Positions 7,547 through 51,782 of a DNA stretch of 64,000 nucleotides are shown piece by piece (positions within the stretch are counted from its first letter, which is position 1; every line of letters begins with the position of its first letter). Below the pieces are notes generated by a model. It was not told the origin of the DNA. It made no database searches and saw only the letters and a program-made list of their open reading frames with translations. The position numbers were made by a program, and so were the translations under genes. Source of the DNA: Squalus acanthias (taxonomy: Eukaryota); assembly GCA_030390025.1 (NCBI GenBank), contig CM059432.1, positions 81,470,001-81,534,000 of the forward strand, read 5' to 3'.

Positions 7547-8026
7547 TTTGGGAGTTACCCTTGAAAGAATGACTTGCATGCAAAGCATTCACTTCAACAG
7601 GGTTCTACCAGCAGACTTGTTACATCAGCTGTCTGATGCCACGCAGGAGACATCCCTCACATGCTATGTGAGTGCCATCATTTGCAAATAGAAGTTTGTG
7701 AAACTTAGAAACTTGATAAAACTGTGTGCGACTATCATGCAGCTGTCTGACATTTATGCCAAACTAAATGAAATACTCTGCTCTCCTATAAATGGTGTCA
7801 GTGACCTGATGAATACATGGTACCCTGGGTGATATTACACAGGTCTTCATGGCTGCTTGAAATGAACCGGTGGCAAAAATATCAAGTGCTATGGTTACTA
7901 TTACTGCCACAGTCAGAGTTGTCTAGGCAGATGATCTTGGCTGCAGACCTTCATGCAGAAGATGGCACAGCTCTCCCGTAGTCTCTTTGGTCAAGTGCAC
8001 CCTGCTCCCACAGAGCTCAACACTGA

Positions 8027-8784
8027 GGGGTAATACGATCTGCTGACCTATTGCGGCAAAATTTGCAATCGGTATGACGTTGCACTCTCAGAGTACGCCG
8101 TCATACCGCCTCTGGAATTGACTGCAAGTTCGGGATTTGCAGCGTTAAATCCCGAACTTGCGATCTGTCAAGTTCCGACTAGACAGATCATCTGCAGTGA
8201 CTGTCAAGTCCTCATTTGAAATGATGTGCTGGCACAGAGTTGGGCTAATTGCCCACCAACTGCGTTTCAATTATGCTGGAAAATTTTACGGCTGGTGCAG
8301 ACAGGCGTAGGAGCCTGTTTGCACAGCGTAATGGGAAGGGGGATGAGAAAATTGTATAAATAATTAAACACAAACACATAAAAGCTCCGTGTATCAATCT
8401 ACTAGGCAGCTGTAAAGGCTTGGTTTGATGGATGAGATCATTTTAATCCTTTTTTTAAATCTTGCAGAGTCTTCCAGTAAATAACTGTACTTACTCCAAA
8501 GTATTTTCTGTACTTTTTTAAAGCCAAGTACTGTACTTGTCAAATAAATATTCACACCGTTTAATTTAAAATTTGATTGATGTCGGGCATCGGAGATTTT
8601 GTTTCCTGATTGGCTAGTGAAACAACGGTGTGCCCCTGGGATCCGTGGGCCACTACACTGCGCACAACTCTGCAGCATTTCAAAGTAAGTTTTCGTTTGG
8701 GGCCTCGCACCACGTAAGTGCGGATTTCTTTCGGAGGTCGGAGGCGTACTCCTGAGCTACACCGCTGACTGAAATTTCAGGGCC
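8027..8784. mobile_element. Harbinger-like MITE (left end uncertain)
   Basis: Right TIR gaaatttcagggcc followed by att. Internal cgatctgtcaag...gacagat hairpin is shared with 22324-22351. Confidence 0.5.
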
Positions 8785-11423: not shown

Positions 11424-12249
11424 GAGGTGTTTAGAGAATGTGCCTATCATGTTTGAATAGTTGGCATGCAGTGTGGGGAAGTGAGGCTGGCAGTGGTGAG
11501 AAGGTGGAGTGTGATTCAGTGATTGCAGGAGAATGAAGGGAAGTGGGGGAGGGGAGCATTGTGAGTAGTGAGGCTTAAGGTGATAGAGGTGTGAGCAGAG
11601 AGTAAGAGAACAGTATTCTTACCTTGACAACTCTGGTGAGGTAATTGAACTTCTTTCGGTATTGCAACCATGTCCTGGGAGCTAGGCTCCTGGCATTGAC
11701 CTCCTCAGCGACCTCTTCCCACTGGTGGTGGAGGTGTTGCCTGATGTATTTTCTGCCCCCTGGGGGGGGAGCAGGATCTCCCTCCTCCTGTCCACCACCT
11801 GGACCAGGGTCTCCAACATGGCATCAGAGAACCTGGGTGTCCTATTTGGACCTCTTTCATCCATTTTTTAAGTTTCCCTGTTGTCTGCAACCAGAGTGCG
11901 CCTCCCCTTTAAGAGATGCCAGCTGCCTTTAAATGGAGTCAGTGAAATCCGATTTCCCACCCTCCTAAACAAATGTACAGCCAACGAATAGCACGGATAG
12001 TACTGGCTGCACGCCTGAGTCATTATAATGAGGTCGCAGCACCAATTTCACATGGTCCCTGAGACTACATAAACAGGCATATGCAGTGCACGCCCTGCCC
12101 TGCGAACAGGTTTTCGGTGCAATCAAATTTCTAGGCCTTTGTTTCTACTTATAGTATATCAGAAAAAAACCTATTTGTAAATACATGGCATAGCAATACT
12201 GCTGCGGCTCTTAAAGTACTGAATGAATAGACTATTAAAACAAAGCACA

Positions 12250-14559: not shown

Positions 14560-16448
14560 ATGACTGCACTGAGACAGAGGGCTACACTCAGGTTCTCCGA
14601 TGACTCCCTCCATATGCTGTGGAGGGAGTGAGAGCACGCAGGGAGGTCCTCTTCCCTTCTAATGGACGGAAGAGAGCTCCCCAGGAGACAAAAGGAGCCT
14701 GGCTCCGAATAGCAGAGAAGGTGAACAGCAGGGGTGTGGTCAGGAGGACCTGGGTGCAGTGCCGCAAACTGTTTCAATGATCTCATTAGATCTGGAAAGG
14801 TGAGTGCAAAGCCACACTCAACTTCATCCTGCTGCGCCACTCATCACATCCCCATCACTCTGCCTTCCCAACTCTGCTCCTGCACATCCGTACTCACACC
14901 AACTTACCTTGCACGTCCACCTATCCCTCGCTATCTACATTATCACATCCCCATCTGACTAGCCACCCCTCACACTCACCCTCATGCTAATGCAATCATA
15001 CCAACTAACAACACACAAGGAGGCCACTTGGCATTGCCACCCCTCTCCATCATAGTCACCCTCTACAGATGTAACCCATCCATTCCTTACACTCTTTCCA
15101 TCACTCTCACTCAACCTTCTCTTCTTTCCCTCCTTGCAGTAAAAGTGAGCCCACAATAAGAGGGCGAGGGAGAGAACCGGAGGTGGCACTCCATCATTGG
15201 CCACCCTAACATCAGCAGAGGAGGCTGCCTTGGAAGTCTCTGGAGTCGTCGAGCAGCTGGAAGTTGGGAGACGGAGAGAGGGAGACCTCTCAGCAACCTT
15301 GCGACAGAATTACATATTATACAGCTGCATGGCATACAGCAGTCACTCATATGGGGACTGATGTCAGCAGCCAGTGAATGTTCATCATGTGCATAATGGT
15401 ATCTGGACCCCTTCAAATGACATATCTAACTCCTCTCTTTACTCTCCCACAGGTGCATCAAGTGACCCCCCCACTGTCCAGGAGGAAGAGGAAGACGACT
15501 TCTCAGAGCAGCCTCTGAGGGCGCACTGTCACCAGACATAAGCGCACCCAGCACCAGGGCAGATACGCACACCTCGGTGGGTCCCCCGCGAGATAGAGTA
15601 GTGTTGTCACCTGGTGTCTCACAACTCACAAGTGAGCAAGAGCAGATGGTGGAGAAAGGACGGCAGTGGAGACTCTTCGCCAGAGAGCGCAGGACGCTCC
15701 CAGCTCTGCTCAGCTGCATGCAGACGCTGAGCTTCGGGGGCCATCAAGAAAGAGGGCATCCTGGATGTGCAGCAAGAAGTGTAGGAGGCTGTGACAGGTT
15801 TTGCGGCCGCGATGTCTGCAAATGTCGAGAGAATGGAGGAGTCCATCTCCAACATGAGCACCACCGTGTTGCAGGTGATGGTGACTCTAGGCTCTTCCAT
15901 GGATAGGATGGCCTCCTGCATGGAGCAGCTGATGCGCTACTCAGAGGAGCACATGGTCTCTATGGGGAATAGATGGCTATATGGAGGATAGATGGCTATC
16001 TATGGGGAATAGATGGTAGAGGCTCATAAACGTCCTCTCTAGGAGGGATGTCAATGTAGAAGTGGGTCCTCATGGCCCCACTGCTGGCAGCAAGGTGCTC
16101 TCCAGCTCCTTGCTAGCAGGAAAGTGCAGGTGGCCCATGAGAGGGATGATGGTGAGAGGGGACATGCAAGTGGGGGCTACTTCAAAGCGCTCGCACTTCT
16201 CCCCGGTTGCCCCCCTCAGTCAGAGCCCCAGATGCCTCCTTGGATCACGATGGCCAAGTTTGCCCCTGCACATTCACAGGAGAAGCAGACTTTGGCGGGG
16301 CCATAACAGGCTCCAAAACCCAGAGGATGTCCGCCAAAAAGATCTATGCAATCGCAGCAGGGAAGTGAGCAGGCTGCCTCTACCTCTGCTGAAGCCACGG
16401 GTAGCACCTCGTAAAAGCACACGTAAGAGAAAGATGAAACACAAGTAG
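14560..16448 (+). pseudogene. Harbinger Myb/SANT partner gene, multi-exon, frameshifted
   Basis: RFSDDSL...W..IAEKVNS...RTWVQCRK...NDL motifs. Donor aag|gtgagt near 14800, acceptors near 15139 and 15452, basic C-terminus PRKSTRKRKMKHK*. Confidence 0.75.
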
Positions 16449-16759: not shown

Positions 16760-17985
16760 TCTGGCCATGATGAGCCCATCCCTGGCCTCCTGGGCAGCAA
16801 TGTGCTCGGGTGCTGGTGGGATCTGGACCGCAGGTTCCTCCTGCTCCTCCTCCTCGTCTTCCAGCTGATGCTCCTTCTCCTCCTCTGAAGAGGTTGTGCA
16901 CTCAGAGCCTTGCTCCTTATGCAGCGCTACTCCTCACTGCTGCATTACATTGTGTAGGGCGCAGCAGACCACGACGATACTGGAGACCCTGGCTGGTGCG
17001 TACTGAAGGGCTCCTTCAGATCTGTCAAGGCATCTGAAGCACATTTTCAGCATGCCTATTGTCTGCTCTGTGACACATCTGGTGGACATGTGGCTTTCAT
17101 TATATCTCTCCTGGGCCTCAGTACTTGGCCTCTTCAAGGGTGTCATGAGCTATGTCTTCAGTGGATAGCCTTGTCTCCAAGCAGCCAGCCGGAAAGTCTG
17201 TTTGGAGGAGCAAAGAGCCGAAGGAGGGTGGACTGGCACAGGATGAAAGAGTCATGACAGCTGCCAGGGAATTTTACGCACACATGCATGTTGATCTTCC
17301 TATGGTTGCAGACGAGCTGCACATTGAGGGAGTGGAAGCTCTTGCGGTTAACACAAACTCCTGGGTAATGATGGGGTGCCCTGATGGCCACATGTGTGCA
17401 GTCGATGATGCCCTGCACCCATGGGAAGCCAGCCAGAGTGGCAAAGCCGAGCGCCCACTCAGTAACACTGGCTTCATCAGTGGCAAAGTTGATATAATTG
17501 GCTGACTTGTCAAACAGGGCATCGGTGACCTGTGTGATGCATCTGTGGGCAGCCGACTGCGAGATGCTGCAAATGTCTACTGCAGATTTCTGGAAGGAGC
17601 CTGAGGTGAAGAGGTTGAGGGCGCTGATGACTTTGACAGCCACTGGTAAGGCATGTCCACCCGCTCCTCTGGGCTGCCGGTCTTTCTCGAGCAATCTGCA
17701 AATGTCTGCAATGACCTGGCGCGATAGCCTGAGCCTCCTTTGGCACTGCTGCTCAGTCATGTTGAGGAAGCTCATCCTCTGCCTGTATACCCTGTGTTGA
17801 GGGTATCGCCTCTGGCGCGGTGCAGCCCTGCGCTGATGCCCTCTGTTCTGTGCAGCATCAGGTGGTTGAGGAGAAGGTTGGTGGTGTTGTTGTTGGTGCT
17901 GCTGGTGAGCCTGTTGCTGCTGGTGTTGGGGCTCATTGTGGTCCGATTCTGAGGACCAAGGTGAGACAGTATAAATGGCACCCAT
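16760..17985 (-). pseudogene. Harbinger DDE transposase (HARBI1-like), frameshifted
   Basis: ORFs 17158-17985 ([34 protein letters not shown]) and 16934-17146 (TEQTIGMLKMCFRCL, CCALHN). Confidence 0.92.
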
Positions 17986-20220
17986 GCTGATGAAATAGAT
18001 GGCAGGTCAATGACAGAAGCAATCTGTCAATGGTGTGATAGGTTCTACCAATGAGGTGACACTGGACGCGGACGTTGCTGGAAACACTTGCAACCTCTAG
18101 AAAGCTAAATCTGTGCTGGCAATGCAGTCAGCAACAGCATCTGCCTTAGGAAAGTGATCAGCTGTGAGGTTGGAGTTTTTATTGTACTTCTCATGCTGTG
18201 CACTAATGAACTGGATCAATGGCCACTCAACCTCCGCCTCAGGTTCACAGATGTGGTTTCCGAGCTGCGTGATTCCCACGCTCATCCAGGGAAATTTGAA
18301 AGGTCGGGTGAAAAAAGGTGCTTAAGAGTCTGATAAGTACCTCATAATGATTTAAATTAGCTCGCTCGCCTCTGTCATTCCGGTCGCTGCCGCACCGGCA
18401 AACGCGCCTGAGGGAAAGGCGTGTGGGGGCGAGATTATGGCGGGTTCCCGACCCGCTGCAGGATATTTCAAATTTCCCATCCGACCCGCCTCCAATCGCG
18501 CCCGCACAGACCCCAGAAAATTCAGGCCATTGTTCCAGAAATTGCTCTAGGACGCATTCCTGACAGTTACACCTTACATACATGCACGTTCATTCCTTCT
18601 TACACCAGGATCTGACGGCCAGTTACCTCTGCCAGTGAACCACCAGAATATATGGGGTCGGTGGGATGTCACCCTAGTTAAATATTGCCAGCTGGCACCC
18701 ACACCACTAGAGGGGCATCTTTGATTCCCGCCAGCCCCCACAGGCTAGAATGTCCAGTGGCAGTCTCTCTCCTGCCCACCCTCCCCAAAGATGTTTGTAT
18801 GACCCCTTTGGCCTCTGTTGTAAGAGGGCTGATATTATCATTAATTAAAAAGATTTAGAATTACCTTGTCTTGATGGCCCAGACCACTTATCTGACCTGA
18901 CCTGGACTTCCAGGTGGGGCCCACTTAGATCCTTCAAGTGGCTGGTATGCTTTATCTCACTTGGTGTATTAGCCTCTAACTTATGCCAGGCCACTTTGAG
19001 GCCCAGGAAGTAGAAATTTCCAGCAGCAGAAGTCCCGGCCTCAGCCTCACCCCCCTCTGCTTCAGTGGCGATGTTTGGGGCAAGGGGATGCTCTGTTCCC
19101 AAAACAAGGTCGCCAGAAGCTCCATCATAAGGCCAGAATCCGGCATATCCAGGCCCTGGCAGAGTTTGCGACCGTTTTACCAGACTCCTACCTGAGCTAC
19201 GGTCAGAATCCACTGACCAGCTGAGCAATATGGGGGTCATAACATTTTAGAAAAATATATTTCAGAAAAACATGATTTTGGAAGTGTTTTGGTCCAATAG
19301 ATCCATACGTTAAGACATAGGAGCCCCAAAAATTCACAGGCTTCCAGTGGACTCCGACTGCAAGTTGGCAAGAACACAGTGGAAGACCTGCAAATTAGCC
19401 CAGATACACTGGGCTCCCAGCCTAGGGCTGCTACTTTCTGCAGGACCTTGTTTGATGTGGAAACTCCATCCAGTCCAAACACGGTCTCCTACATCAGAGG
19501 GGGGCATGTCTGGGGGGCTCCCCGGTTGAGAATTTCCTTGGCCCTGCCTAGTTTTCCATTGGGCAGCCAATGAGGGGGAGGGCTTCCAACCATTTATAGA
19601 AGTGGTAATTTTATGAATCATGCTCCAGACCTGGAGCCTCACAGCCCAGGAGTGCTTTTCGGGAATTCAGGTGTGCCCCACAATTGTCTGTACATACATG
19701 CCAGGCTACAAAATTCGGAAAAGCTGACATATCAAGAAAACAACGTACAACTTAAAAACAGCCCTGAAAAAAGGCCAATGACCAAAGGCAGTGCTTCAAA
19801 GCAACTTAATAAATGAATTCCTATTTATTACATCGAATTTCAGGATTTTTATCAATGTCTTGGAGTTTCATTCTGCAATTCAGTTTGTTTTTTCTGGGGA
19901 TCAAACTGTGCCCATCTCCATGGCTCTGTGCTGGAGAACTAATGCTGAACTACCATGATGCTGTGAAGCTAAGGAAAGAAGCCCTGGAAAGACAGCAGTG
20001 CAATGAGAAAATGTCAGAGGAAATGTAATTTCTCCATGAGTTTGGCGACATTGTGTGTCCCTCTGTGCACAAGGCACTGTCAATGGCTTTATCAGCACTC
20101 TGCGTAAGTATAATTTTTTTACATTTGTCTCAGTACTGTATTAAACATTTTAAAAACAAAATTACCTTAAGAGGGATTGTTTATAGTTTTTAAAAGGAGA
20201 AGCTCCTTCCTAATCTTAAT

Positions 20221-20580: not shown

Positions 20581-21659
20581 TTCAGTACCAAGAGGAGGTT
20601 ATATTTTGCATTCCATGGCTTGTCATTATTTATGTTTATACCTAACTAATTAAACTAAATTCAATGTAGAAATCATTTTTCACATTACATGATGAAGAGG
20701 AATGGGAAGAGATGATTTAAAACCCACAGGCATGTACCCACCTTTAGTTCATTAATTGCAGTTCCTGGTCCCGCAAAGATTCTAAATGCCATGACTATTG
20801 CAGCAGTACAATATGGGCTGTAGTAGGTGGCAAACAGCATGAACGGGGCTAGAAACAGATGGCAGGGATATAGTAGTAGTGATTGAGCCCAGGCCTCCTT
20901 AGTTGAACAGTTGCAAGTTCAAATCACACAGGAGGGTACAGATGTAGCAGTGATGAAACCCACCCAGCCAAAGCAGACCAATGTGATAGACAAGTAACCC
21001 TGGGACTTGTCCTGAAAAAAGTTCAGACATGAGCAACAGGTAGCCCTAGGATTCCTCAATGAAAATGTAGATTCAACTGTTTTAAATATTGGGTCAATGC
21101 ATAAATATTTTATAGAAGACATATTTTGGAATTTGGGGTATATTTTGAAATGGAAATCTATTGAACAGTCATACAAAAAGCATACCAGCTTTGATTTGAT
21201 CAGTCTGGATTAAGTTAGCTGAAAAGCACAAGGAGCTGTGGGAAGCCAGCTTTTGTGACATTAAACATTCTCTATTCCTCTACGATATTTCCTTTTAAAA
21301 TATCTGGTAGATTCAGAGTAAGCTATCTTCCAATTCTGACACCATGAGCATTTGCTATTGGCCCAAAAGTTGCTGCCAAAATAACGGTGAGTTTAATGGC
21401 GCTCGCCGTTATTAATGTGTAAATTGTCCAGCAACTTGAGGTGAGGAAGAGATAGCCCATGAATTGCAAATTGCCACAGGTTGCTGGACGATTTACACCA
21501 CTCTGCCATTAGCCTCACGAAAACGGCAGCTCACCCTCAACCTCCTCGTGAGTTTCAGGAAGTTGCTGCATTTACACATTAATTGACAATTAAACTTGCC
21601 ACAGAAAGTTAGGGCTGGAACTTAACAGCGTAAGGACCTCTTTAATGATGAGATTTATG

Positions 21660-22448
21660 GGCTGGAAATTGCAGCCAGAGGCTTCCCGCGGGCGAATGCC
21701 TCCGAACCGCAAGAAAAGTCCGCACCTACCTGGTGCCTCTGTATCTTCGAAGACTCGCGCTCCTGGGCCTGCAGGCATACCGCTGCATAAAGGCCCACAT
21801 ATCCCAGGGGCGCATGTGGTTCGCAAGTGTTCCTGGGATCATGTGGACCGGCCCAACCAATCACAAAGGGGGATTCCCATTATCCTTATGGGGATTCCAT
21901 TTACGGACAGAATTCCCATAAGCAGAATTAGGAATCCCCTAAAAAATACATTTCACAGCACTGAAATAAAAATAAATCATCACATGTTCAAAATTAATTA
22001 AAATACAATTTCATTAAACATTTAAAACAAAAAAATAATTTTTTGAAAAATAAATTTAAACATTTTTCATGGGGCCAAAAATAACCTAAACTAATTTTAA
22101 AGGTTTTTGTATGGTTAAATCATTTAAAAAAAATTATTTTAATATTTATTTAAACCCTTATGCCGGTAAAAGAAGGCCTTACGCCTGCTTTTACCATGAT
22201 GCGGAGATGCCGGTGTTGGACTGGGCATACCAGGCATAAGAGTTTTGTGGGCATTCGCTGGGCAGTAGTTGGGCAAATGGCCCAACACTGCACCAGCAAA
22301 TGTCCATTTCCTGCGGATTCGTACGATCTGTCAAGCTGAAACTTGACAGATTGCAAGTTCCAGGTTTTCGCGCATGCGGGTCTTGCAGGGCACTTACAAC
22401 CGTGTACGCTGTGCGATTGCGGTCATAGGCCCCGGAAAATCCAGGCCC
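21660..22448. mobile_element. Nested Harbinger-like MITE
   Basis: Ends ggctggaaatt / gaaaatccaggccc, candidate TSD atg. CpG-rich arms, AT-rich core and internal hairpins. Confidence 0.65.
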
Positions 22449-22880
22449 ATGTTTCTGCAATGCCACTCAACCTCTCTGGACCAGAAAGTATTAAATTATT
22501 GCTTAAGATTTTTTAAATTTTATGGGGTAGAAATTAGGTCGCGCCCCATTTGGGGCGCAAATATCGTCCGAGCGCAAATATTAGCGCCTGGCGCTAATTA
22601 TCGGCACTGACAGGAAACTTCACTTTTACCGCCCCGGGAGGTGAGTGGAGCGCTAAAGCAGGCGCTGCACACCTCTCTTAAGGCGCAAAGGCCTAGGAGT
22701 GAGGCGCTACCTCAGCGCACGAGCGCAGCGCAGCTGCTGCCAGTTAGCGAGGGAACACAGACACACTGGCGCCGGACACTTCTTAAAGCGGGGGGGTCCA
22801 CTTGCTCCCCAGCCACACCCTGCTCATTGCAGCCTTGAATCTCAGCCTGGAGAGACCTGTAATCCATTTTGCTGCCAAGC

Positions 22881-24703
22881 ATGGAGAGGGTGAGAGAACG
22901 CGCTCATCGCTTCACCGAGCGGGCCTTGGATGCTCTGGTTGACGCAGTGGAGCGCAGACGATGCATGCTGTTCCCGGAGAGTGGCAGGAGGCCTTTGCCA
23001 CGCGAGTTCAGAAGAGTGTGGAGGGAGGTGGCTCAGAGCGTCTCCTCCAGGAGCATGGTGCCCAGGACCCATGTTCAGTGCTGCAAAAAGTTCAACGACC
23101 TCACTCGGGTCGTCAGGGTGAGTGGCTTTTTCTCAATACCTCTCCATCCCTCCATCTCAACCTCACTCTATGGCCAGAGGGTCTTAAAACCCCAATGCAC
23201 AACACTCATGCAACACCTATGGCCCTTTCATCAAACACACACACACATTCCACACTTTGCATACAGTAAGGGCTATTCACCTATGGGAGGCACATCAGGC
23301 AAGACCATGGCTGCATATTGTAAGGGCTATTCACCTATGGGAGGCACATCAGGCAAGACCATGGCTGTATATTTACTCAGATGCTGTCCTTTTTCTTGCA
23401 GGCTAAGCTGGCTCATAATCGGAGACAGCAGCAACGGACGGGTGGAGGGCGGCTTCAGCTGCAACCCCTCAGCGATCTGGAGGAGCGCGTCCACAGGATT
23501 GTGGCAAGCCGGGTGATCGGTCCCGTCGCCACTGGGGACGCCGACCCCGTTGTGGACAGCAATGGTAAGGTCATCACCTTTTTGTCCTCTGTCCTTCCAC
23601 TTGTCCCTCACAATACCAGCCTTTGACACTTTCAATCCAACTTGCTAACTCGCTGCACTTATTCCTCCCTTACTGCCACCCTGTCCTCACGCTAAAGCCA
23701 CTCTTGTACCTCCCTGCTTTCAGATGGTGATTCACCAGCTGAGGAGACGGGCCCTGAAGCTGCCACTGGGAGTGATGCTGCAGCTGAGGAGGAAGAGGAA
23801 GCCGGAGCATCAGTGCCACCCTCTCCCGAGGAAGCCCATGGCCACACTGGGAACACGCCTTCCCCGGAGGGGAGCAGGGGGGAAGGGGCTGATGATGGTG
23901 AAGCTCCAGGACCCAGCGGGCTGCAGCAACGCCATGGGGGGGGGAGGGAAGAACGGGAGCCTTCTCCCCAGAGGGAGAGTATGCCAGACACTCCTACTGC
24001 AATGGACGCAGAGGAGGAGCGGCTGATTGCAGAAATGAACAGCCAGGCGGTGGGCATGCACACTGAGCTCATGGGTGCAGTGGGAAGGGTGCCCGAATGC
24101 ATTGAGGCACTGGCAAGGAGTGTGGAGCACTTCGCTGTAGCACAGGCGGATGCCACACTAAAGCTTAGTGCTGCAATTCAGTCACTGGCTGCCAGGAACC
24201 CATCTGAGACTGCTCTCATGCAGACTCAGATTGAGGCCATGCGAGCACTGACTGCTGCCATCCTCGATGGTTCGTGCACATGTCCCCGGGGCTGTCACCG
24301 CGCCGCAGCAGGCCAGCAATCTGTTCTCCGGCAAATTGCTCCGGATGCTGAAGTGCTGCCCCGTGGGAGTGCCAGTGTGTCGGGCGAGCAGGGAGTTGCT
24401 GTCCTCTCTCACGATGACAGCATTCCTGCTGCCAACACTGTCACTTCTCCACTGCACTTGCCACCGCCTGTAGGACAGACTGCTGCCGCCCATGCAGAGT
24501 TGGTGCAGTCTGCAGCCGGGCCCTCCAGGCCCAGAAGTGGTCGAGGCCGTCCTTCAGGGGCATCTGCAGTGTCAGGGTCTGACGAGCAGCAGCCTTCCAC
24601 CAGCCTTGCTGCAGCCACTGAGATCCCATTACGGAGGAGCAGTAGGGTTAGAAGGGGGGAAGTGCGCAAGGGAAGGAGATCACCCTCGAAGGGCAAAAAG
24701 TAG
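22881..24703 (+). CDS. Harbinger Myb/SANT-like (trihelix) DNA-binding protein; predicted exons 22881-23117, 23402-23564, 23724-24703 (~459 aa)
   Basis: MERVRERAHRFTERALDALV...WREVA...RTHVQCCKKFNDL | AKLAHNRRQQQRTGGG. GT-AG introns of phase 0 and 1 join in frame to ORF 23813-24703, which ends in a basic NLS-like tail. Confidence 0.85.
23258..23365. repeat. 54-bp tandem duplication in Myb intron 1
   Basis: tgcata..gtaagggctattcacctatgggaggcacatcaggcaagaccatggc occurs twice. Confidence 0.9.
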
Positions 24704-24997
24704 GAGGTGTGCCAAAATGCTGGTCATTTTTTTATTAAAGGCCGAGGTTCATGGCCCAACTTTTGTTTAGTGTTTTGGACATTATCTCCAGGTTGTGAGA
24801 ACCAGTTATGTTATTGACTGTTTTTTTGTGTTTATTTCTATGAGTTTGTCATGAGGAATTGACACACACAGAGTTTGTAAAATAAATAAGTTTCTGTATT
24901 CAAAATATACATGGCTGGTGGTTGGAATTATTGGTGCCTTGGCCGGCTTAGGGGTTGCGTGCTGGGTTGATTCGTGTTTGTAGCAATGGCAGGGGCC

Positions 24998-26158
24998 CTA
25001 GAAGCGGCTTGCTATTAGTCGTTGACGGACGGCCCTTGCAGTTTGACCATTGTGGGCCGCCCTCCTGCCTTGGTGCTGCTGATGATCATCGTCCTCGTCC
25101 TGTTCCTCCTCTTCCTCCTCCTCCTCTGGTGGTGCTACAAGGCCTGGTGGCATTGGCTGGGTCCTGAGGATTGCCATGTTGTGCAACATGCAGCACACGA
25201 CTACGAAGTTCGAAACTTGCTCAGGCGAGTACTGCAGGGCTCCTCCGGAATGGTCCAGACAGCGGAACCGTTGTTTCAGCACGCCGATTGTGCGCTCAAT
25301 AATGTTCCTGGTTGCTTGATGGCTTTCCTGGTACCGCAGCTCAGCAGGGGTGTTTGGCGCACGGAGCGGTGTCATCAGCCAGGTGCTCAATGCGTACCCC
25401 TTGTCCCCCAGAAGCCAACCAACTGGCTGATGCGGTGCCTCGAAAAGTTCTGCCACGGTAGTCTGGCGCAGGATGAAAGCATCGTGGCAGCTGCCCGGAT
25501 AGTGGGCATTGACAGCGAGAATCACCTGTCTGTGGTCACAGACCAACTGCACATTCAAGGAATGGAACCCCTTTCTGTTCCTGAATTCCTCTGCATTCTC
25601 TCGCGGAGCACGCAAAGCCACATGCGTGCAGTCAATGGCGCCCTGCACCATGGGGAAGCCCGCTACCCTCGCAAAGCCCATAGCACGGTCATGCTGCTTG
25701 TCTGGGGTCATAGGGAAAGAGATGAAGTCTCGTCTCCTTCTGAAGAGGGCATTGGTGACCTGCCGGATGCAGCGATGCACCGCAAACTGGGAGATATTGG
25801 CGAGGTCCCCAACAGCAGCTTGGAATGAGCCAGTGGCGTAGAAGTTCAAAGCCACTGTGACCTTCACTGCCACCGACAGAGACGTCCTGGACCTCAGCTG
25901 AGGCTGCAGATCTGGCTGCAGCAGGTGGCAGAGCTCAGTGACCACCTCCTTGCTGAATCGCAGCCTTCGCAAACACAGCTCCTCGGACATATGGATGTAG
26001 GAGAGCTGTTCACGATATACCCTGGGAGGGTAAGCTCTCCTGTACATGCGCCTGATGGCCCTCCTCCGTCTGGCCATCATTGCCACTCTCTGTCTGCGTC
26101 TCACTATCCTCCGATTCAGCTGGAGCAGGACGACGCCCCCAATCATTGCAGCCCCCAT
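24998..26158 (-). CDS. PIF/Harbinger DDE transposase (HARBI1-like nuclease), 386 aa, uninterrupted
   Basis: Catalytic motifs GAIDCTHV, GWLLGDKGY and RNIIERTIGVLKQRFRCL; HTH region; YPGSCHDAFIL; CCMLHN. Confidence 0.96.
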   Translation of the reverse strand: MGAAMIGGVVLLQLNRRIVRRRQRVAMMARRRRAIRRMYRRAYPPRVYREQLSYIHMSEELCLRRLRFSKEVVTELCHLLQPDLQPQLRSRTSLSVAVKVTVALNFYATGSFQAAVGDLANISQFAVHRCIRQVTNALFRRRRDFISFPMTPDKQHDRAMGFARVAGFPMVQGAIDCTHVALRAPRENAEEFRNRKGFHSLNVQLVCDHRQVILAVNAHYPGSCHDAFILRQTTVAELFEAPHQPVGWLLGDKGYALSTWLMTPLRAPNTPAELRYQESHQATRNIIERTIGVLKQRFRCLDHSGGALQYSPEQVSNFVVVCCMLHNMAILRTQPMPPGLVAPPEEEEEEEEQDEDDDHQQHQGRRAAHNGQTARAVRQRLIASRF

Positions 26159-26351
26159 ATTCTCTTTGCCAGAAAAGTAATGAGGTACAGCAACTAAAGT
26201 AGCAACAAAGTTAGGATGAACTAGGCCAAACTACCTCACAAAGCGTTGAGTCAATGTAGAAGTCTCTCTCTCTCTCTCTCCGAATCTCTCTCTCTCTCTC
26301 AGAACGAGTGGTGCATAAATGTCGACCACAGAAAAAGACAGGAAGAGGCCC

Positions 26352-26498
26352 CCTTTAAATAGCGCCCCCCCCAGCCCCACACCGATTGATAACGTTCCAG
26401 TCTTCCGGTCGTTGGAAGCGCCAGGCGGTAAGGCAGGGGGCGCCACTCAATTTCTGCTCCGGGGCGCCCCAAGGGCATTGCACCATGGAATGACGTCA
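26352..26498 (-). promoter_or_regulatory. Putative transposase promoter (TATTTAAA box, CRE-like TGACGTCA)
   Basis: ctttaaatagcgc near 26354 and tgacgtca at 26491-98. Both motifs are retained in the derivative (near 27427 and 27554). Confidence 0.4.
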
Positions 26499-26852
26499 CA
26501 ATCTGCGCGCGCAGGTGGTCGCAGCGGTAAGTTTTAGCGCCGCCGCACAATCTCAAGTTAAGTTCTCGAGCGGCGCAAACAGCGCTGCGCCCGGGCGTTA
26601 GCGGCTTAACGCCCCATTAGCGCCCCTTAAGGCGCTAACGGGAGGCGCAACCAAGTGAATTTTTACCCCTAAATGTTTTAATTTTTTCTTAATTTTCCTT
26701 TCTGTCTCTTTTTTCTCCCTCTTAATCCAATCTTTCTTTCCCTCTCTTTATTTCTCTTTCTGTACCTGATTTGACTCTAATTCGCCCTAATTCCTTCTCA
26801 GTCATTCCTCTGTTTCTTTCTCAATCCTTAAAGTTAATTGGTTAAAGAGATA

Positions 26853-27733
26853 GGGGGAGAAATTCAGTTTCGCCCCATTTGGGGCGCAATTATCGGCCGG
26901 GAGCAAAGATTAGCGCCTGGCGCTAATTATCGCCACCGACTGCAAACTTGACTTTTATCGCCCCTGGAGGTGATTGCAGCGCTAAATCAGGCGCTTCACA
27001 CCTGTCTTAAGGCGCAAAGGCCGAGGAGCGAGGCGCTACCTCAGAGCGCTGGCGAAGCTCATGTAATGTCAGTCAGCAATGGAACACACACACAATGGCA
27101 CGGGCCAGTTCTTAAAGGGGATGGTTAATCTTGCTTTCCATCCACATCTTGCTCATTGCAGCCTTGAATCTCGGCCTGGAGAGACCTGCACATCAAATGT
27201 GCTGGAAAGAACAATGGCGAGTACCAGGCAAAGAGCTCAGAGTGCAGCCCCCACAGTCTCTGCTAAATCGATACAAGGAATGGCAAATCAAAATGACCCT
27301 GCAAAGTGCTGCTCATACCCAAAACTCCTTCACACAACGTTGAATCTCTCCAGAAGTCTCTCCCTCTCTCTCTCAGAATGCGTAGTTCAAAAATGGCACC
27401 AACAATAAAAGGCAGGAAGCGGTCACCTTTAAATAGCGCTCCCCCTTTCCCTTCATGACTGCAGAACGCTCCCCTCAAACTGTCGTTGCTAGCGTCAGGC
27501 GGTAAGGCAGGGGGCGCCACTCAATATCCGCTCCGGGGCGTTGCGCACTCGAGTGACGTCATGATCTGCCGGCGCAGGAGATCGTGGCGGTAGTGTTTAG
27601 CGCCGCCGCAAAATGTCTAGTTAATTTTGCGAGCGGCGCAAACTTCGCCGCGCCTGGGCGGTAGATGCTTTGCGCCCTATTAGCGCCCTCTTAAGGCGCT
27701 AACGGGAGGCGCAACCAACTGAATTTTCCCCCC
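26853..27733. mobile_element. Internally deleted non-autonomous relative of the 22524 Harbinger
   Basis: TIRs gggggagaaatt / aattttcccccc, TSD ata. The left ~330 bp and right ~390 bp align to the ends of 22524-26669, with no coding core. Confidence 0.92.
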
Positions 27734-28630
27734 ATAGACTGTTGGTCCCATTGTTCACCAAGGTCCCAGATGCCCCATTTCCCTCACACTTCCAGCAACT
27801 TACTGGGCAAAATATTTTTGAGCTGAAGGGTGAGGGAAAAGTAACAAACTGGGCAGGCTGCGCGATGCCGGCCTGCTCCAGCAAAATCTGGGCCATTAAC
27901 TTCAGTTGTTAAACTATAAAAGACTCCAGGGCTTCAAAACAAGGGCTGTTTATTGACTCGCTATTTCAGTTTACTACTTGGAACTGTTAACCATACAAAC
28001 ACTTTGTGGTGAGAGAGAACAGCCAGGGAACATCCTGTACTTGACTATGGATACAAAGTTACACCAACTTTAATTCAACCATAAAAAGTTGCAGGCTCCT
28101 ACCTAAACTGATATTTCCATCAGCACTCTGAAGGGGAGTCAGCTTCATGATGGGCACATCTCTTAGCTAATGTACCTCACATGAGGATCTGGATTAAGCA
28201 ATTTCTGCTGCGCAAGCCTGGTGTGCAGCATTGGGCTTGCATGCCTGGATGATTGCACACCCTAAATGTCTGTCATACAGCAGATGAGGAAACTCTGATG
28301 CTAGGCACAAAGCTGCTGGAAGGCATGAGCTGGAAGTTGGGTACGAGACTATGCACTCATATGTGTGCAGTTTGGCACCTAATAGGGAAATGAGTAGTTG
28401 CTCCTGAAATTCCACATCCCCAACTGTTGAAACCAACATTCAATGATGTATGGTGTGTGTCTGTGCTATGGTCAGAAGGGTGGTAGCAATATCCTCACAC
28501 ATGTTATGATGAGTTGCACAACTCATCATGCCACTTGTGAGGAGTTCCTGGTAGCTGCTGTCTGCCTAGCAAAGGTTTAAACCTGTGCTTCTGATTTTTC
28601 TGATGACCAAATAATGACTATCCTGCTTGG

Positions 28631-36806: not shown

Positions 36807-38031
36807 GGGGGGTGCAATTAGATTCGACCCGAAAATGGGCGCAGGGATTGCAATCAGCCCGCGCTCGTTGAAAGGAGTGCAGGCAGCATGTAAAATTCGT
36901 GCTGCCTACTAATTATAATGATGGCAGCGCACAGCCCAGCACTGAGCGCGCTGCTGACTGGCTGTACGCTCAGCAGGGGGTTGAAGTTTGCGATGTTCGC
37001 GCGAGGCTAGCTTTACTTAAAGCTTTATTTAAGGCTAGCCTGTGCCTCTTAAAGGCAGCCTGCACCTCTGAAAGGAGAGCTGCCTTCTGGTGATCAAAAA
37101 TTTTAAAACTGCTTCAGCACAAACCAAAATGGCTCAACAGGCCAGGGAAGCGGCACCCAGGGTCTCGGGACGCAGCCCTCGAAGCTTTGTGCAGGGGGCA
37201 AATATTTGAAGAGAGGTCCTCTACCCACAGGGGTCTAGGAAGCCGTCCTGAAACACTGTAAGCAGGATGTGAGACCAGATCGCCGAGGCGGTGACTGCCA
37301 GCTGTGTCACCCCCAGGACGTGGCTCCAGTGCCAAAAGAAGTTTAATGACCTCAGACGAGTGGTCTAGGTCATTGAATGCATCTTTAAAAGCCGTCTCCT
37401 ACCACTGCACCACTAGCCTCACACACTATTCAATGCACGACACCCCCATCGCTCACCTACCAACAATTTCTACCAAACATGACTCATACCTCACGCTCAT
37501 AGCTTCACCTCACTTGCACACACATACTACTGCTGCACATCTCACAGCTTGAACACACTGTCAGCTATTCAACCATGACAGCCATATCACCCAAACACAT
37601 TACACCACACTCACTAACACACTTCCCTTTCTCCTGCAGGCTCGCCTGCATCACTTCACTCCCCATGGAAGAGACGGTGTTGGTCATTCTTGACAGGAGC
37701 ATAGCTGAGCCCATGGCCAACGGCGGGGCTGAAAAAATCCAAGATGCCGGTTTCCTCATACATTATCCTCCTTCTCACATCCCACTTCCCCCTTATCCCA
37801 CAATCTCTTCTGATTTACAAGCTGCACATGGTGTAAGCATGCAGCTCTTGCTTTACACGATCTGCTTCATTTACATTCTTCTGCCACACACAGGCAGCAG
37901 CCGTGCTACAGACCTGCCCTAAATGATGATTGCCACAGCCCACACCAGAAGTGGACAGAAGCGAGGCGGCCTCTATTTTTCTGCCGAAACCAGCCTTAAA
38001 TGCCAGCGCTAATAGGGGGGATTTCATGGCC
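36807..38031 (+). mobile_element. Degenerate Harbinger derivative with Myb exon remnants
   Basis: 37128-37370 reads MAQQAREAAPR...PRTWLQCQKKFNDLRRVV. Acceptor ctcctgcag near 37639; decayed G-rich TIR-like ends. Confidence 0.6.
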
Positions 38032-40665: not shown

Positions 40666-40802
40666 TGTAATATATGTAGGTAGAACAAATGAAGGACAGA
40701 GACACGATGAGTTGCTAGTCCATGTGCTTCCTTTATTAGGCCAGAGCGAACTGAGCATGCTCATACCAAACCATGTGACAAACCATGTGATAATACATTA
40801 CA
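40666..40802 (-). repeat. 3' LTR
   Basis: tgtaat...attaca termini; adjacent PPT (minus strand aaggggggaaagcag, 40803-40817). Confidence 0.95.
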
Positions 40803-41149
40803 CTGCTTTCCCCCCTTAAAAAAATATATGTATTCCCCTCTCAAATAGAACAAAACTATGGTCCCACCTTTCCCAGCATTACATGTACTACATAACAAAA
40901 GCTCCAGGCTTTTTGTCTTTTAAATGAACTACAAATCCTACAAATGAACTACAAATCCAGTTTAATAACAGGTTTGCGGAGCCTTCCTGATCTCCTTACA
41001 GAAGGTTTTATTGTTGAACCAATTTTTGGGCCGTTTTGTTTTGGTTCTGAACTCAAAGATAATTCTGTTTCTATCTCAGTATTGTTTGAACCTGGTACTT
41101 CAGTTACTGAAGTCTGAACTGAGTCAAACTCATGTATATGTTCATGATC

Positions 41150-43160
41150 AAGTCAAGATCACTGTCCAATCCAGGCCAGTAAACAAAGCTTCTTGAAATT
41201 GATTTCATACTGACAATCCCTGGATGTTCAGTATGAAGTTCGGCCAGAATTCTATCTCTCCAAGAAGTAGGTACCACCACTCTGTTTCCCCACTTGATAC
41301 AACCTTGCTCACAAGACAATTCAGTATGACGGTTATGGAATGGTTTCAATTCTGTGTCCATACATTGATCAGTCCATCCATTCAAGGTGTTTTCATACAC
41401 TCTTTTCAGTACTGAGTCCTTTTGAGTCTCATGTGCAATCTCAGTTGCATTCACGGGAAAGTCTTTGTCAACTGCAGCTAGTGTGAAAATCTCACCTTCA
41501 CTCCCAACACATGAGTCTTCATGTGGCAACCTGGACAAGGCATCTGCGATTGCATTTTGCTTTGAAGTGCGATATTCAATCATGCAGTCATATTGTGACA
41601 ACAACACTGCCCAATGTTGCATTCTTGATGCGGCCATTTCAGGAATGGTAGATTTGGGCCCCAATATTGCTAGGAGCGGTTTGTGATCAGTTATCAGGGT
41701 AAACTTTCTGCTGATCAGGAACTGTTGGAATTTCTTGATTCCAAACGCTATAGCGAGTGCCTCCTTTTCAATTTGCACGTAGTTTCTTTCGCTTTTTGTG
41801 AGGGTTCGCGATGCAAATGCGATTGGTTTCTCTTGGCCATCATCCATTACGTGGCTTATGACAGCTCCCACACCGTAGCTGGAAGCATCACACGCTAACT
41901 TAAGCTCACGCTCTGTGTCGTAGTGCACAAGTAGAGCATCGCTAGAGAGACTTCTCTTACAAGCATCGGAAGCTTCCTATTGCACTTTTGTCCACTTCCA
42001 CTGGACATGCTTCTTGAGGAGCTCGTGCAATGGAGCTAACGTGGTCGTTAACTCAGGTAAGAAACGTGCATAGTACTGGACCATTCTAAGGAACAATCTT
42101 AACTCAGACAAGTTCTGTGGCTTTGGAGCATTGATGACAATATCAACCTTTTCATTCACTGGTTGCAAACCATTTGCATCAACTTTGAGACCAAGGTACA
42201 CAACCTCGGGCTGCACAAAAGCACATTTGCTCCTTTTCAATTTGACGTTGTGGGCATTCAACCTTCGAAGCACTATATCTAACACTTCTAGATTTTATTC
42301 CTCGCTGCTTGTTGCGATCAGCATATTGTCTTGATTGCATAAGCAATTTGGAACTCCTTGCAAAATCTTATCCATCGTAGCCTGGAAGATTTTGGGGGAA
42401 GACTTTACACCGTACGGCAGCTTGGTGTATGAGTAGAGTCTCTTGTGTGTATTGATGGTGAGATACTGTTGACTCTCTTTGTCAACATTCAGCTGAGCGT
42501 AAGTGTGTGACAGGTCAAGCTTGGAGAAAATCTTGTAATGGGTACTGCTTATCGTCAAATGCTTGGTTGATAGTAATTTGTAGTCTCCATACAAGCGTAC
42601 AGTTTTGTCTGCTTTGGGCACTACCACAATCGGGGTAGCCCATTCACTTTTGTCAGTTTTTACTAGCACTCCGTTATCTCTCAGCTTCGTTAGCTCTTCC
42701 TCCACCTGACTTTTCAATGCATAGGGGCCCAGCCTTGCCTTACAATAGACAGGCTTCACATTGGACTTGATGCGGATATGCGCGTCATACCCAGTGATGC
42801 CCTCATAACTGTCTTTGAACATGCTTTCATACTTGTTCAGCATTTTGTCGAGTCGCTTCTTTGAAGCATCTACACTGAAGACATTTTTCCAGTCTAGTTT
42901 TAACTTTCTCAACCAGTCTTTACCTGTGAGGGTTGGCCTGTTGTTGTAGGTCGCTACAATAGTAGGCAGCTTTACTGACTGACCATTGTGTTGAACTGTA
43001 CATTCCATTTGTCCACATGTCTCTAGGATTTCTCCAGAGTAGGTTTTTAACTCTACAGTACTCTTTGTAAGTGTTACTTGATTAAACTTACTCTCCTATG
43101 TGTCCTTACTCATGATAGACCAGTCCGCTGCCGTGTCGATACACATATCAATATATTGCT
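41150..43160 (-). pseudogene. Gypsy pol (protease-RT-RNase H-integrase N-terminus), frameshifted
   Basis: IDTAA protease motif near 43130; WATPIVVVPK, FSKLDL, LPYGVKSSP, ACDASSYGVGAV, EKEALAI, TDHKPL, LHTEHPGI. Confidence 0.9.
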
Positions 43161-43349
43161 CGTTGATCAAAAGTTTTGTACAGAAGTCTTTCTCATGACT
43201 GCTAGCATTGCCACTAGTGGCACAGATACTGTAGATGCCTAGTTCTTCAACATCAGGTGTGTTCACTTCAATATTGTGAACTCCTCCCTTTTGTTATCAC
43301 TGCTTTGCATTGCCACTAGAATGGTTCTTACTTCCTGATTTAGTTCTCG

Positions 43350-44138
43350 CTCTGCAAGCTGTTGAAATATGGCCTTGCTTCTGGCAGTGAAAACACTTTG
43401 CATTTCTATATTGGCAGGTCTGTGGTGAGTGATTTCCATTGCAGCGATAACAATTCACTGACCCAGTCTCATAGCTTTAGGTTCGGCGGTGGCTTTGTGT
43501 CTGTAGACCTCAGCTGCACTAGTCACTTGAGTTGGACGGAGCTCCCTAGCATTCTTAGACACCATCTCCATAGATAGGGCAATTTTGCATGCTATGTCAA
43601 ATGTTAGGTTCGGAGTGTTCAGTAACTTGGACTGTGTGCGCTCATCCACCAGTCCACACTCAAACTTATTTCGCAACACACGACCCAAAAATGTGCTGAA
43701 GTTACAATGCAAAGACAGGTTCTTAAGAGCTACAATGTACTTACTGATGGTTTCACTTTGTTTTTGCTTTCTGGTACCAAACTTATAGCTCTCTGCTATT
43801 TCTAATGGCTTTGGGTCCAAATGGTCCTCGAGTTTCTCGACAATGTCTTCAAACGACGCATCCTTCGCTTTCCCTGGTGCGAGTAGGTTTGTCAACGTTC
43901 CATAGACATCTGGCCCGATCTCCGTTAGAAAAATTACTTTTTTACATTCACAAATTACTTTATTTTGAGCTTGAACATTCTCATCTGCTCCTTCGGTCTC
44001 AATAATATTATTGGCTCCAAAAAACATCTCCATCCGCTCAATGTAAGAACTGAATGGTTCGCGAGATTGGTCATAAATACCAAAGTTACCGATGAATCCC
44101 GTAGGTGCGGCCATGATTGTCCCAATCCCGTCGATCAT
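43350..44138 (-). pseudogene. Gypsy gag with two zinc knuckles
   Basis: ORF 43455-44138, followed out of frame by CYRCNGNHSPQTC...CFHCQKQGHISTAC. Confidence 0.88.
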
Positions 44139-44321
44139 TGACTCGGCGCACTACCTGTGTACCTGTGAGAATCAATGCCGCCAACATGAAGGTGAAGCAC
44201 AGATGATTCTGCATGAGCATTAACAGTAAAACATCACAAAAATTCAGTTTAGGTGTCACAAATTCACCTTAAACTTTTCAACTCGAAGGTTGAACACTGT
44301 GTCCTTCTAATATCCCTAAAA

Positions 44322-44339
44322 ATCCCATCCTCGTTGCCA
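44322..44339 (-). other. Primer-binding site, complementary to the tRNA-Ser(GCU) 3' end
   Basis: Minus strand tggcaacgaggatgggat lies 3 nt from the 5' LTR. From memory, vertebrate tRNA-Ser(GCU) ends ...AUCCCAUCCUCGUCGCCA (17/18 match). Confidence 0.8.
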
Positions 44340-44342
44340 AAA

Positions 44343-44478
44343 TGTAATATATGTGGGTAGAACAAATGAAGGACAGAGACACGATGAGTTGCTAGTCCAT
44401 GTGCTTGTTTTATTAGGCCAGAGCGAACTGAACATGCTCATACCAAACCATATAACAAACCATGCATAATACATTATA
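44343..44478 (-). repeat. 5' LTR
   Basis: About 8 substitutions and 1 indel versus the 3' LTR; followed by the TSD gttac. Confidence 0.95.
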
Positions 44479-49899: not shown

Positions 49900-51782
49900 A
49901 AGATGACGTTCTGGGAAGACATGGGACAGGCTAACTTTTTGTCATGGGCTCCTTGGCAGCCTGGTCCTGCAGACTTAAGTCCTGGAATCTCTGTGAAATT
50001 ATCTTGTAAAGACTGACCTGCAAAGCATCTGTTGAAGCAGCCATACTTGCCACTGTTGTCCTTAGAGCCTCCTCCTGACAACTTGTTGCAACAGATATAT
50101 CCTGGACTGCTACATTCTCCAGAGTGTTCTGCATGGCCTGGCTCACTTCCTGCATGGAAGGAAGTGGACTCCTGCAACCTATCCAGCAGCTCCACCACAT
50201 GCATGAGGACCATCTCTACTGCCTGCACATAAGATTGATTCTCCTGTATCAGTTTTTTTCTCTTGAAAAGTGAACCCGAGTCCCTAAACTCCTCAGTAAA
50301 GGGCAGTCATTTCTCCACCCTGTGGCAAGGCTCCGACTCTTCCCCTTCACAGCTCCTCCTGCTCACTTGTGCTCAGAGCGTCACCTAGTCTGACTCACTA
50401 TTTAAATACTCCTAAGTAGGTGTATCTGGGCTGCTACTTAACTAAGTAAGCTGCCAGAACAGAGTGAATGACGCTGGTGCAGGAGTGCTCGAACTGGAAG
50501 TGCCAAACTGTTCTTGAGACTCCTCATCTTCTGGCTGAACATCACCTCGGAGGGTTACAAAGGGAATAGATTGAGGAGAATGGACTCTCACACCTGACTT
50601 TGAAGAACTAACTGAGAAATGATAGAGCTTACAATTAAGGTGAATGCCTGGAGACTGGAACAACGCATTGCACTCCATTCTGTTACCAACCTGTTCTTGG
50701 CGGCTTACTTCCAACTTCTCCATGTACCTGGTATATCACCTGAGGAATCCGCCTCATGGTAGGATGGCAGCTGTGGCTGTTCTTTGCTGCTGATAGTGAA
50801 GAAAATCAACTGAACATTTAATTTCGCCTAGACATCTGCAACCCTTCCCACAGTGAGATTGATTCAGATACAAGCTGTGCATCACTCTTTCCTTTTATCA
50901 GTTTAACACTACCACCACTGGTCTCAGACACTGGGACAATTAGTGTGGAATGGGGTGTGGGTCGTGAGCAATATACCCTCTAATTTTTTTTCCCTGTGCA
51001 GGCCCTTTAAATTTCCTACAGCGGCCGCGCATGCGGGGTATCACTTCCAGCAATAGCAGCTGGTGAGCAGCCTGCGCGGGACCTCACGAGTGATGCACGG
51101 CCGCGCACCTTAGGGAGAACACCGGTCGTGAGGTGCCTTGGGAATATTAACTGACACATTCACTTTGTCGTTTACACTGCAAGGGCATGGTAGGTATAGG
51201 TGTGAGTCATGATTCCAACATTCTTTAAGGTTGTGCATGGGTATTCGTGCCTTTACTTACCTTCAACAACCTCAAGAGATCATGAAAATGTTTCCGGCAC
51301 TGTGTTGTCATACGTTGTTGTCAAGGTACCACTGACTGCCTGATCCACCTCCCTCCATAATGCCTGCACCATCCTGTTCTGGGGTCTCCTTTCTAGAGTG
51401 TCAAAGAACCAGTCTTTCCTTGATCTTACCTCAGTCAACAAAATATCCATGAAAGTGTCTGAGAACTTGGGGGTCTTGTCACAGCAGGAGCCCTCGATGC
51501 TGCTCCTCCTTCTGTCAATTCAAGCATCTGTTGGCTCTCTCTTAGTATTCCTCAATTTCAAGTTCTTTGGCTCTTTAAGCAGCTACAGCCTTTTCACCAC
51601 TGCAGCAACACTGCATTTCCCTCCCTCTCAGAGTCAGTGAGCCAAACAGGAGCAGGAATACTGCTGAAATGCCACCCTGCATATCAAATGAGGCCTCATC
51701 TAGGAAAATGCAATGGGTTCCTGCCCAGTGTCACATGGGCGACGGAAGTCCTGCCCTGCCCTCTTTCTGGGAAATTGAGCCC
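49900..51782 (-). mobile_element. Degenerate Harbinger derivative with Myb exon (left boundary uncertain, possibly near 49105)
   Basis: Minus strand 51262-51480 reads PKFSDTFMDILLTEV...WREV...TQCRKHFHDL followed by a gtaagt donor; end gaaattgagccc. Confidence 0.6.
50969..51124. mobile_element. 156-bp hAT-type MITE
   Basis: 8-bp TSD gtcgtgag; imperfect TIRs caatataccctctaa / ttagggagaacaccg. Confidence 0.8.

Follow-up and report, generated by a model that had tools for sequence, protein, structure and literature searches.

A complete two-gene PIF/Harbinger transposon with unbroken reading frames in the shark Squalus acanthias

Could a shark genome still hold a Harbinger transposon equipped to move? 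The question is raised by a 64,000-nucleotide stretch of Squalus acanthias DNA (contig CM059432.1 of assembly GCA_030390025.1, positions 81,470,001 to 81,534,000; hereafter the window, in whose coordinates all positions are given), where an original prediction had placed a young, possibly natively active two-component Harbinger element. The element occupies 22524-26669 (4146 bp), and we find that it is a structurally complete PIF/Harbinger transposon in which neither of the two genes has a broken reading frame. On balance, we read it as an intact and probably young copy, less than about 1% diverged, of a multi-copy shark family, in which jumping is a prediction. Most likely the family spread chiefly in the past, perhaps millions of years ago at the slow pace at which sharks mutate, leaving this copy as an intact survivor. 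That its encoded proteins still function strikes us as nearly an even call, tipped slightly towards no.

The assignment to PIF/Harbinger follows from a DDE_Tnp_4 transposase with its catalytic triad, a separate Myb/SANT-like gene, and short terminal inverted repeats (TIRs). The ISL2EU and Spy groups of PHIS have no Myb-like partner gene, carrying instead an exonuclease partner or a single open reading frame (ORF); we rejected membership in either because the second gene of this element is Myb-like. Both predicted TIRs are in place (Table 1) and are complementary at 11 of their 12 positions. The lone mismatch, at position 7 (G on the left, A on the right), recurs in a neighbouring miniature inverted-repeat transposable element (MITE), and it is thus an inherited family trait rather than a sign of decay.

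The transposase was likewise found as predicted, an uninterrupted 386-residue protein with all three catalytic residues, read without a stop from an ATG at 26158 to a stop at 24998 and matching DDE_Tnp_4 in Pfam at E 1e-38. A protein search gave 250 matches at E 1e-50 or better; among the 120 listed, most come from sharks and rays, and the best identities are 60-66%. Taken by themselves, these matches make the host likely to be a cartilaginous fish outside the annotated ones. An identical transposase was not found in the protein collection searched, and a metagenome scan returned 622 pattern matches and no relatives. We aligned the protein with 29 of the listed homologues, picked for length and taxon spread. 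It differs from the consensus in 8 of the 134 conserved columns, the fifth lowest count of the 30 sequences, and it has the complete triad, as do 9 of the 29 homologues (the other 20 lack at least one DDE residue). An AlphaFold model of the transposase (mean predicted local distance difference test score, pLDDT, of 88) has DDE transposases as its best fold matches, namely piggyBac (Z 9.8, root-mean-square deviation 5.1, 227 aligned residues) and Tn5 (Z 8.8). No Harbinger chain was seen among the fold matches listed, a listing that does not exclude one. Foldseek gave no match at E 0.001 or better, and a search by sequence found no solved relative, its seven matches being weak (best E 0.065).

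The partner gene, predicted to be a splice-consistent Myb gene, proved to be one. Its three exons, joined across two predicted GT-AG introns, encode 459 residues with no internal stop, and the first exon matches Myb_DNA-bind_5 (PF13873) at E 4e-8. A HMMER search gave 62 matches; word-index searches had given none. Residues 11-456 align with a 554-residue Pristiophorus protein at 38% identity, and two Heptranchias proteins align almost from end to end. Such alignment across the junctions supports the exon model independently of the splice signals. The basic C-terminal tail is a candidate nuclear localization signal. Within the first intron lies a 54-bp tandem duplication (23266-23373) whose copies differ at one base and each start with the donor-like word GTAAG. 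Among the related proteins, a 523-residue Pristiophorus model joins a Myb domain to a Harbinger transposase, which could be an artefact of gene modelling or a genuine fusion, and in two Myb-like proteins the module formed by the Myb domain and the helix following it is repeated in tandem, two or three times.

The two genes converge and are flanked by CpG-rich subterminal regions, of which the left is the likely promoter of the Myb gene and the right the likely promoter of the transposase. In the right region, a TATA-like motif (26354) and a TGACGTCA motif (26491) are both kept in the neighbouring MITE. The motif TAGCGCC/GGCGCTA is concentrated in such ends: 13 of its 15 occurrences in the window fall in the ends of the element (seven) and of the MITE (six), two lie elsewhere, and the 3278-bp interior of the element has none. 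We regard it as a candidate binding site of the Myb-like protein.

Table 1. Coordinates of the element, its flanks and the repeats around it.
Feature	Position	Strand	Evidence or remark
Likely older host MITE, GGCCC... ends, ATT/ATT flanks	21360..27894	.	ends only
Putative target-site duplication, left copy TAT, after AAATTT	22521..22523	+	
Left TIR, 12 bp	22524..22535	+	11/12 to right TIR
Left subterminal region, CpG-rich, 3 TAGCGCC/GGCGCTA motifs	22536..22880	+	83% identical to MITE left end
Myb-like exon 1, 79 aa, Myb/SANT-like domain	22881..23117	+	
Predicted intron 1, GT-AG, 284 bp, with 54-bp tandem duplication	23118..23401	+	
Myb-like exon 2	23402..23564	+	colinear with homologues over both junctions
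Predicted intron 2, GT-AG, 159 bp	23565..23723	+	
Myb-like exon 3, encoding an acidic linker, a conserved helical segment and a basic C-terminal tail, then stop	23724..24703	+	
3' region common to both convergent genes, 294 bp	24704..24997	.	polyadenylation hexamers, + strand 24734, 24881; - strand 24731, 24831 (use inferred)
Transposase, single exon, 386 aa, D176/D252/E288	24998..26158	-	ORF, Pfam, alignment, fold
Right subterminal region, CpG-rich, 4 TAGCGCC/GGCGCTA motifs	26159..26657	-	
Right TIR, 12 bp	26658..26669	-	sequence match to left TIR
Putative target-site duplication, right copy TAA, before ATGTTT	26670..26672	+	
Sister non-autonomous element, 881-bp MITE	26853..27733	+	ends 81-83% identical to element; perfect ATA/ATA duplication

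How such an element would work can be proposed by analogy with the reconstructed zebrafish element Harbinger3_DR and with rice Ping/Pong, in which both proteins are required and the Myb-like protein binds the element ends as well as the transposase (PMC2836001, PMC9392472). Transcription of both genes would start at promoters in the CpG-rich ends and run inwards, each transcript finishing in the shared, bidirectional polyadenylation zone. The spliced Myb-like protein would bind the ends of the element, perhaps at TAGCGCC, and would also bind the N-terminus of the transposase and carry it into the nucleus. The transposase would then cut the element out, usually precisely, and reinsertion would take place at AAA-N3-[3 bp]-N3-TTT, with the central 3 bp duplicated. 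The neighbouring MITE would be mobilised by these proteins too, or else by their counterparts from a sister subfamily.

The flanks suit this scheme. The two putative copies of the target-site duplication (TSD), TAT and TAA, read as the original prediction had given them and agree at two of three bases. With their neighbouring bases they fit AAA-N3-[TSD]-N3-TTT, in which the outer triplets are those of the Harbinger3_DR target, AAACACCWGGTCTTT (PMC3016246). This spacing of AAA and TTT occurs at 75 of the 64,000 window positions (0.12%), and was looked for post hoc, after the Harbinger3_DR target had been read. The shared target context argues that TAT/TAA is likely a true 3-bp duplication with one base changed later. 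Longer or shifted duplications (2-7 bp) were considered and fitted no better than 3 bp, and no empty-site paralogue of the immediate flanks was present in the window.

The neighbouring MITE matches five of the six outer bases of the same target pattern, and its CpG observed/expected ratio is 0.87. In the comparison of its ends with those of the element, transversions outnumber transitions, which suggests that it probably derives from a sister subfamily rather than from a deletion within this copy. Judged by its ends, an older MITE likely took in both the element and this sister MITE, and a third MITE (21659-22448) probably inserted in it as well. The ATT/ATT flanks of the older MITE fit the AAA...TTT pattern poorly.

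Having observed an intact element, we sought to assess its age. A neutral simulation, in which both frames, the starts, the triad and the splice sites had to be kept, assumed a CpG factor of 8 and an indel ratio of 0.05-0.1. Both ORFs remained intact with a probability of 0.47-0.60 at 0.25% divergence, 0.22-0.34 at 0.5%, 0.04-0.11 at 1% and 0.002-0.01 at 2%, values that are weakened by the choice of this copy for its intactness. Intactness thus suggests a divergence under about 1%. When the TSD mismatch was added, the likelihood became flat-topped and was highest at about 0.25-0.5%. In sequence terms, coding integrity and simulation therefore support the claim that the element is young. At the mutation rate of another species, the epaulette shark (7e-10 per base per generation, repeats excluded; PMC10587355), 0.25-0.5% corresponds to 3.6-7 million generations. 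In a shark, intactness does not by itself mean that a transposon is alive.

CpG content had been offered as a further sign of youth, and here the result is mixed. CpGs are well preserved only in the element ends (observed/expected 0.76 and 0.96), and the whole element (0.57) exceeds the window (0.44). The interior is ordinary, at 0.40 in Myb exon 3 and 0.0 and 0.30 in the introns. Between the element ends and the sister MITE, the CpG transition counts were 14/137 vs 35/328, a ratio of 0.96. Among six pairs examined as controls, three pairs of long interspersed nuclear elements (LINEs) gave 2.6-3.3 and two other pairs of Harbinger-like MITEs gave 1.16 and 1.40; a long terminal repeat (LTR) pair, with no more than 4 CpG bases, was uninformative. 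The low ratios of these other MITE pairs, together with the ordinary interior, show that CpG is no clean clock. We accordingly rejected CpG content as a decisive clock, Harbinger-like ends being generally free of CpG excess, and the argument from CpGs to native activity is weak for the same reason.

The spread of the family was gauged from the holdings of 31-mers sampled from window positions 22400-26800 in public sequencing runs, of which 24 were listed. Among these, 20 hold words of the element and 17 hold at least half of them. The 20 runs come from 11 studies and carry seven organism labels. DNA runs of one label, organism A, hold 0.80-0.89 of the 31-mers. For the six other labels, the rows at or above one half hold 0.53-0.65, and one unlabelled run holds 0.66; with full coverage, such shares would put divergence at no more than 1.3-2.0%. 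No listed holder is on record as an RNA run, four rows being RNA by guess, and this is evidence in neither direction. The seven labels suggest that the element likely belongs to a family common to several species. Some of the holders have very small contig sets (1-173 million letters), which suggests a family of high copy number.

Several observations weigh against the reading of an intact young copy. Divergence and incomplete coverage lower a 31-mer share alike, and the top shares belong to two organism-A DNA samples, either of which may be the source itself. Evidence on age, copy number and the ratio of nonsynonymous to synonymous change (dN/dS) is indirect. The TSD mismatch could instead date from the insertion itself, if that was very recent and duplicated its target imperfectly. 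Both proteins also show features of possible impairment. In the transposase, Q277 stands where 28 of 29 homologues have Asn, and neither Q277 nor A256 occurs in any of the 29. In the Myb-like protein, the helical segment (24107-24250, in exon 3) spans 83 residues between its anchors vs 99-128 in all seven homologues measured, making it 16-45 residues shorter. Read that way, these features would describe a copy that looks intact and is dead, through an in-frame loss in the helical region or through private missense changes. We think this improbable. The Myb homologues are distant (at most 39% identity over exon 3) and vary by 29 residues among themselves, the Gln codon is two changes away from Asn and so resembles a family trait more than one event of decay, and position 256 is variable (G, S, V) in other homologues.

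At the other extreme, the element might be a currently mobile source, transcribed, spliced and making new insertions in living species, which we consider unlikely, if a little less so than a dead copy. Both ORFs and all splice signals are intact, promoter-like and polyadenylation motifs are present, organism-A DNA runs hold 80-89% of the words, and the ends show no CpG transition excess against the MITE where the LINE pairs do. Yet the two other Harbinger-like MITE pairs have low ratios too, one of the six TSD bases differs, the intronic duplication has acquired a difference, and the likelihood peak allows millions of generations; near-identity over seven labels also suits an older burst. Bolder still would be a native vertebrate Harbinger that works without reconstruction, whose two ORFs would mobilise a mini-element and whose family is moving in sharks and is near-identical across species, perhaps by horizontal transfer, with an AAA-N3-WWW-N3-TTT preference, footprint-free excision and a shortened Myb helix that makes for a minimal partner; this we rate as a long shot, on a par with the dead copy. 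Recent horizontal spread among marine hosts lies on an axis separate from activity, and seems to us no more probable. Six other labels hold 53-65% of the 31-mers even though the annotated shark and ray proteins listed are at most 66% identical, a combination that fits either a family restricted to one group of closely related species or horizontal spread, and published work describes the transfer of Harbingers to sea kraits and from fish to fish (PMC8437027, PMC9179366). However, the labels are coded and may stand for close relatives, and substitution rates in cartilaginous fish are low enough that 1.3-2% may be an ordinary distance between congeners. Domestication, as a HARBI1/NAIF1-like transposase/Myb pair under host selection, is by far the least probable alternative. 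It would account for two intact ORFs amid broken transposable elements (TEs), and database matches do carry the name 'putative nuclease HARBI1'. That name is an automatic label, however; no orthologue above 66% appears among the listed matches in annotated sharks and rays, the element interrupts another repeat, and its TIRs, TSD, target context and sister MITE are all kept. The reading we keep to is an intact, probably young member of a multi-copy family.

The rest of the window sets off this intactness, and the prediction that every other TE ORF is broken was borne out. Among 23 ORFs of at least 200 residues, none of the remaining ones is a full-length TE protein; 12 others were scanned, of which nine carry partial retroelement domains (reverse transcriptase, RNase H, integrase, endonuclease) and three had no match. 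Two older remnants of Harbinger transposases are present, one at about 16946-18006 that carries a frameshift (about 51-62% amino acid identity) and one at 7662-8027 (about 42%). Myb-like remnants occur near 11614-11766, 14619-14774, 37135-37365 and 51258-51468. At 40666-44476, a broken LTR retroelement has 135-bp terminal matches that are 94% alike, and its pieces of reverse transcriptase, RNase H and integrase each lie in a different frame. A fairly CpG-rich LINE (57206-60350) is split into four frames and adjoins a tandem repeat (60418-61489) that is rich in GC, spans about 1 kb and has open frames on both strands.

Among known systems, Harbinger-Snek of sea kraits is a close native parallel in kind: a vertebrate element with a transposase as well as a Myb-like ORF, intact copies, non-autonomous derivatives and possibly continuing transposition. 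It differs in host lineage, and the parallel drawn here is one of anatomy. The literature on it reports 269 intact two-ORF copies in L. colubrina, and, in L. laticaudata, a single intact copy both of whose ORFs are covered by RNA reads (PMC8437027). The rarity of intact two-gene copies implied by the original prediction was thus overstated. Harbinger3_DR shares with the shark element the two proteins, a 3-bp TSD that is likely in the shark copy, and the outer AAA...TTT triplets of the target at the same spacing (PMC3016246, PMC2836001, PMC9392472), and rice Ping/Pong with mPing shares the pairing of an autonomous two-gene element with a MITE, the need for both proteins, presumed in the shark, and a W-rich 3-bp TSD, likely there (PMC2836001). 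Harbinger3_DR was, however, rebuilt from a consensus, transposes in human cells and has a CWG duplication, and the rice system is a plant one with proven natural activity, whereas the shark copy is native, has a probable W-rich duplication and is known from its sequence alone. LatiHarb1 of the coelacanth is another native Harbinger in a slowly evolving fish, with expression described in a transgenic mouse cell line (PMC3787270, PMC9179366); it belongs to another lineage and is likened here by description only.

Harbingers make up 9.3% of the coelacanth genome (PMC3787270) and are transcribed in several teleosts, with a testis bias in medaka (PMC9179366). For cartilaginous fish, the superfamily is listed in the genome papers of the whale shark and the grey reef shark, and a 2022 survey reports no autonomous Harbingers in the elephant shark and calls for more species (PMC9179366). 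The proteins annotated in elasmobranchs such as Pristiophorus, Heptranchias, Mobula, Narcine and Carcharodon, whether as 'putative nuclease HARBI1' or as Myb-like, belong to the same protein families and have the same lengths; with the transposase identities given above among the matches listed, and 28-38% over the full Myb-like protein, they are too far removed to belong to the family of this element. In the literature searched, mostly without subscription journals, we found no description of an intact autonomous shark Harbinger, and no native vertebrate Harbinger shown to transpose, as the reconstructed one has been. No Harbinger transposase turned up in our searches of solved structures.

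Sea kraits are already known to carry native copies that are intact, so the shark element adds a candidate rather than a concept. Judged by its sequence features, it would be a fair candidate for a transposition assay, and a native intact pair of genes is a ready reagent for such assays and for structural work. For sharks and their relatives, the element documents autonomous Harbingers in cartilaginous fish.

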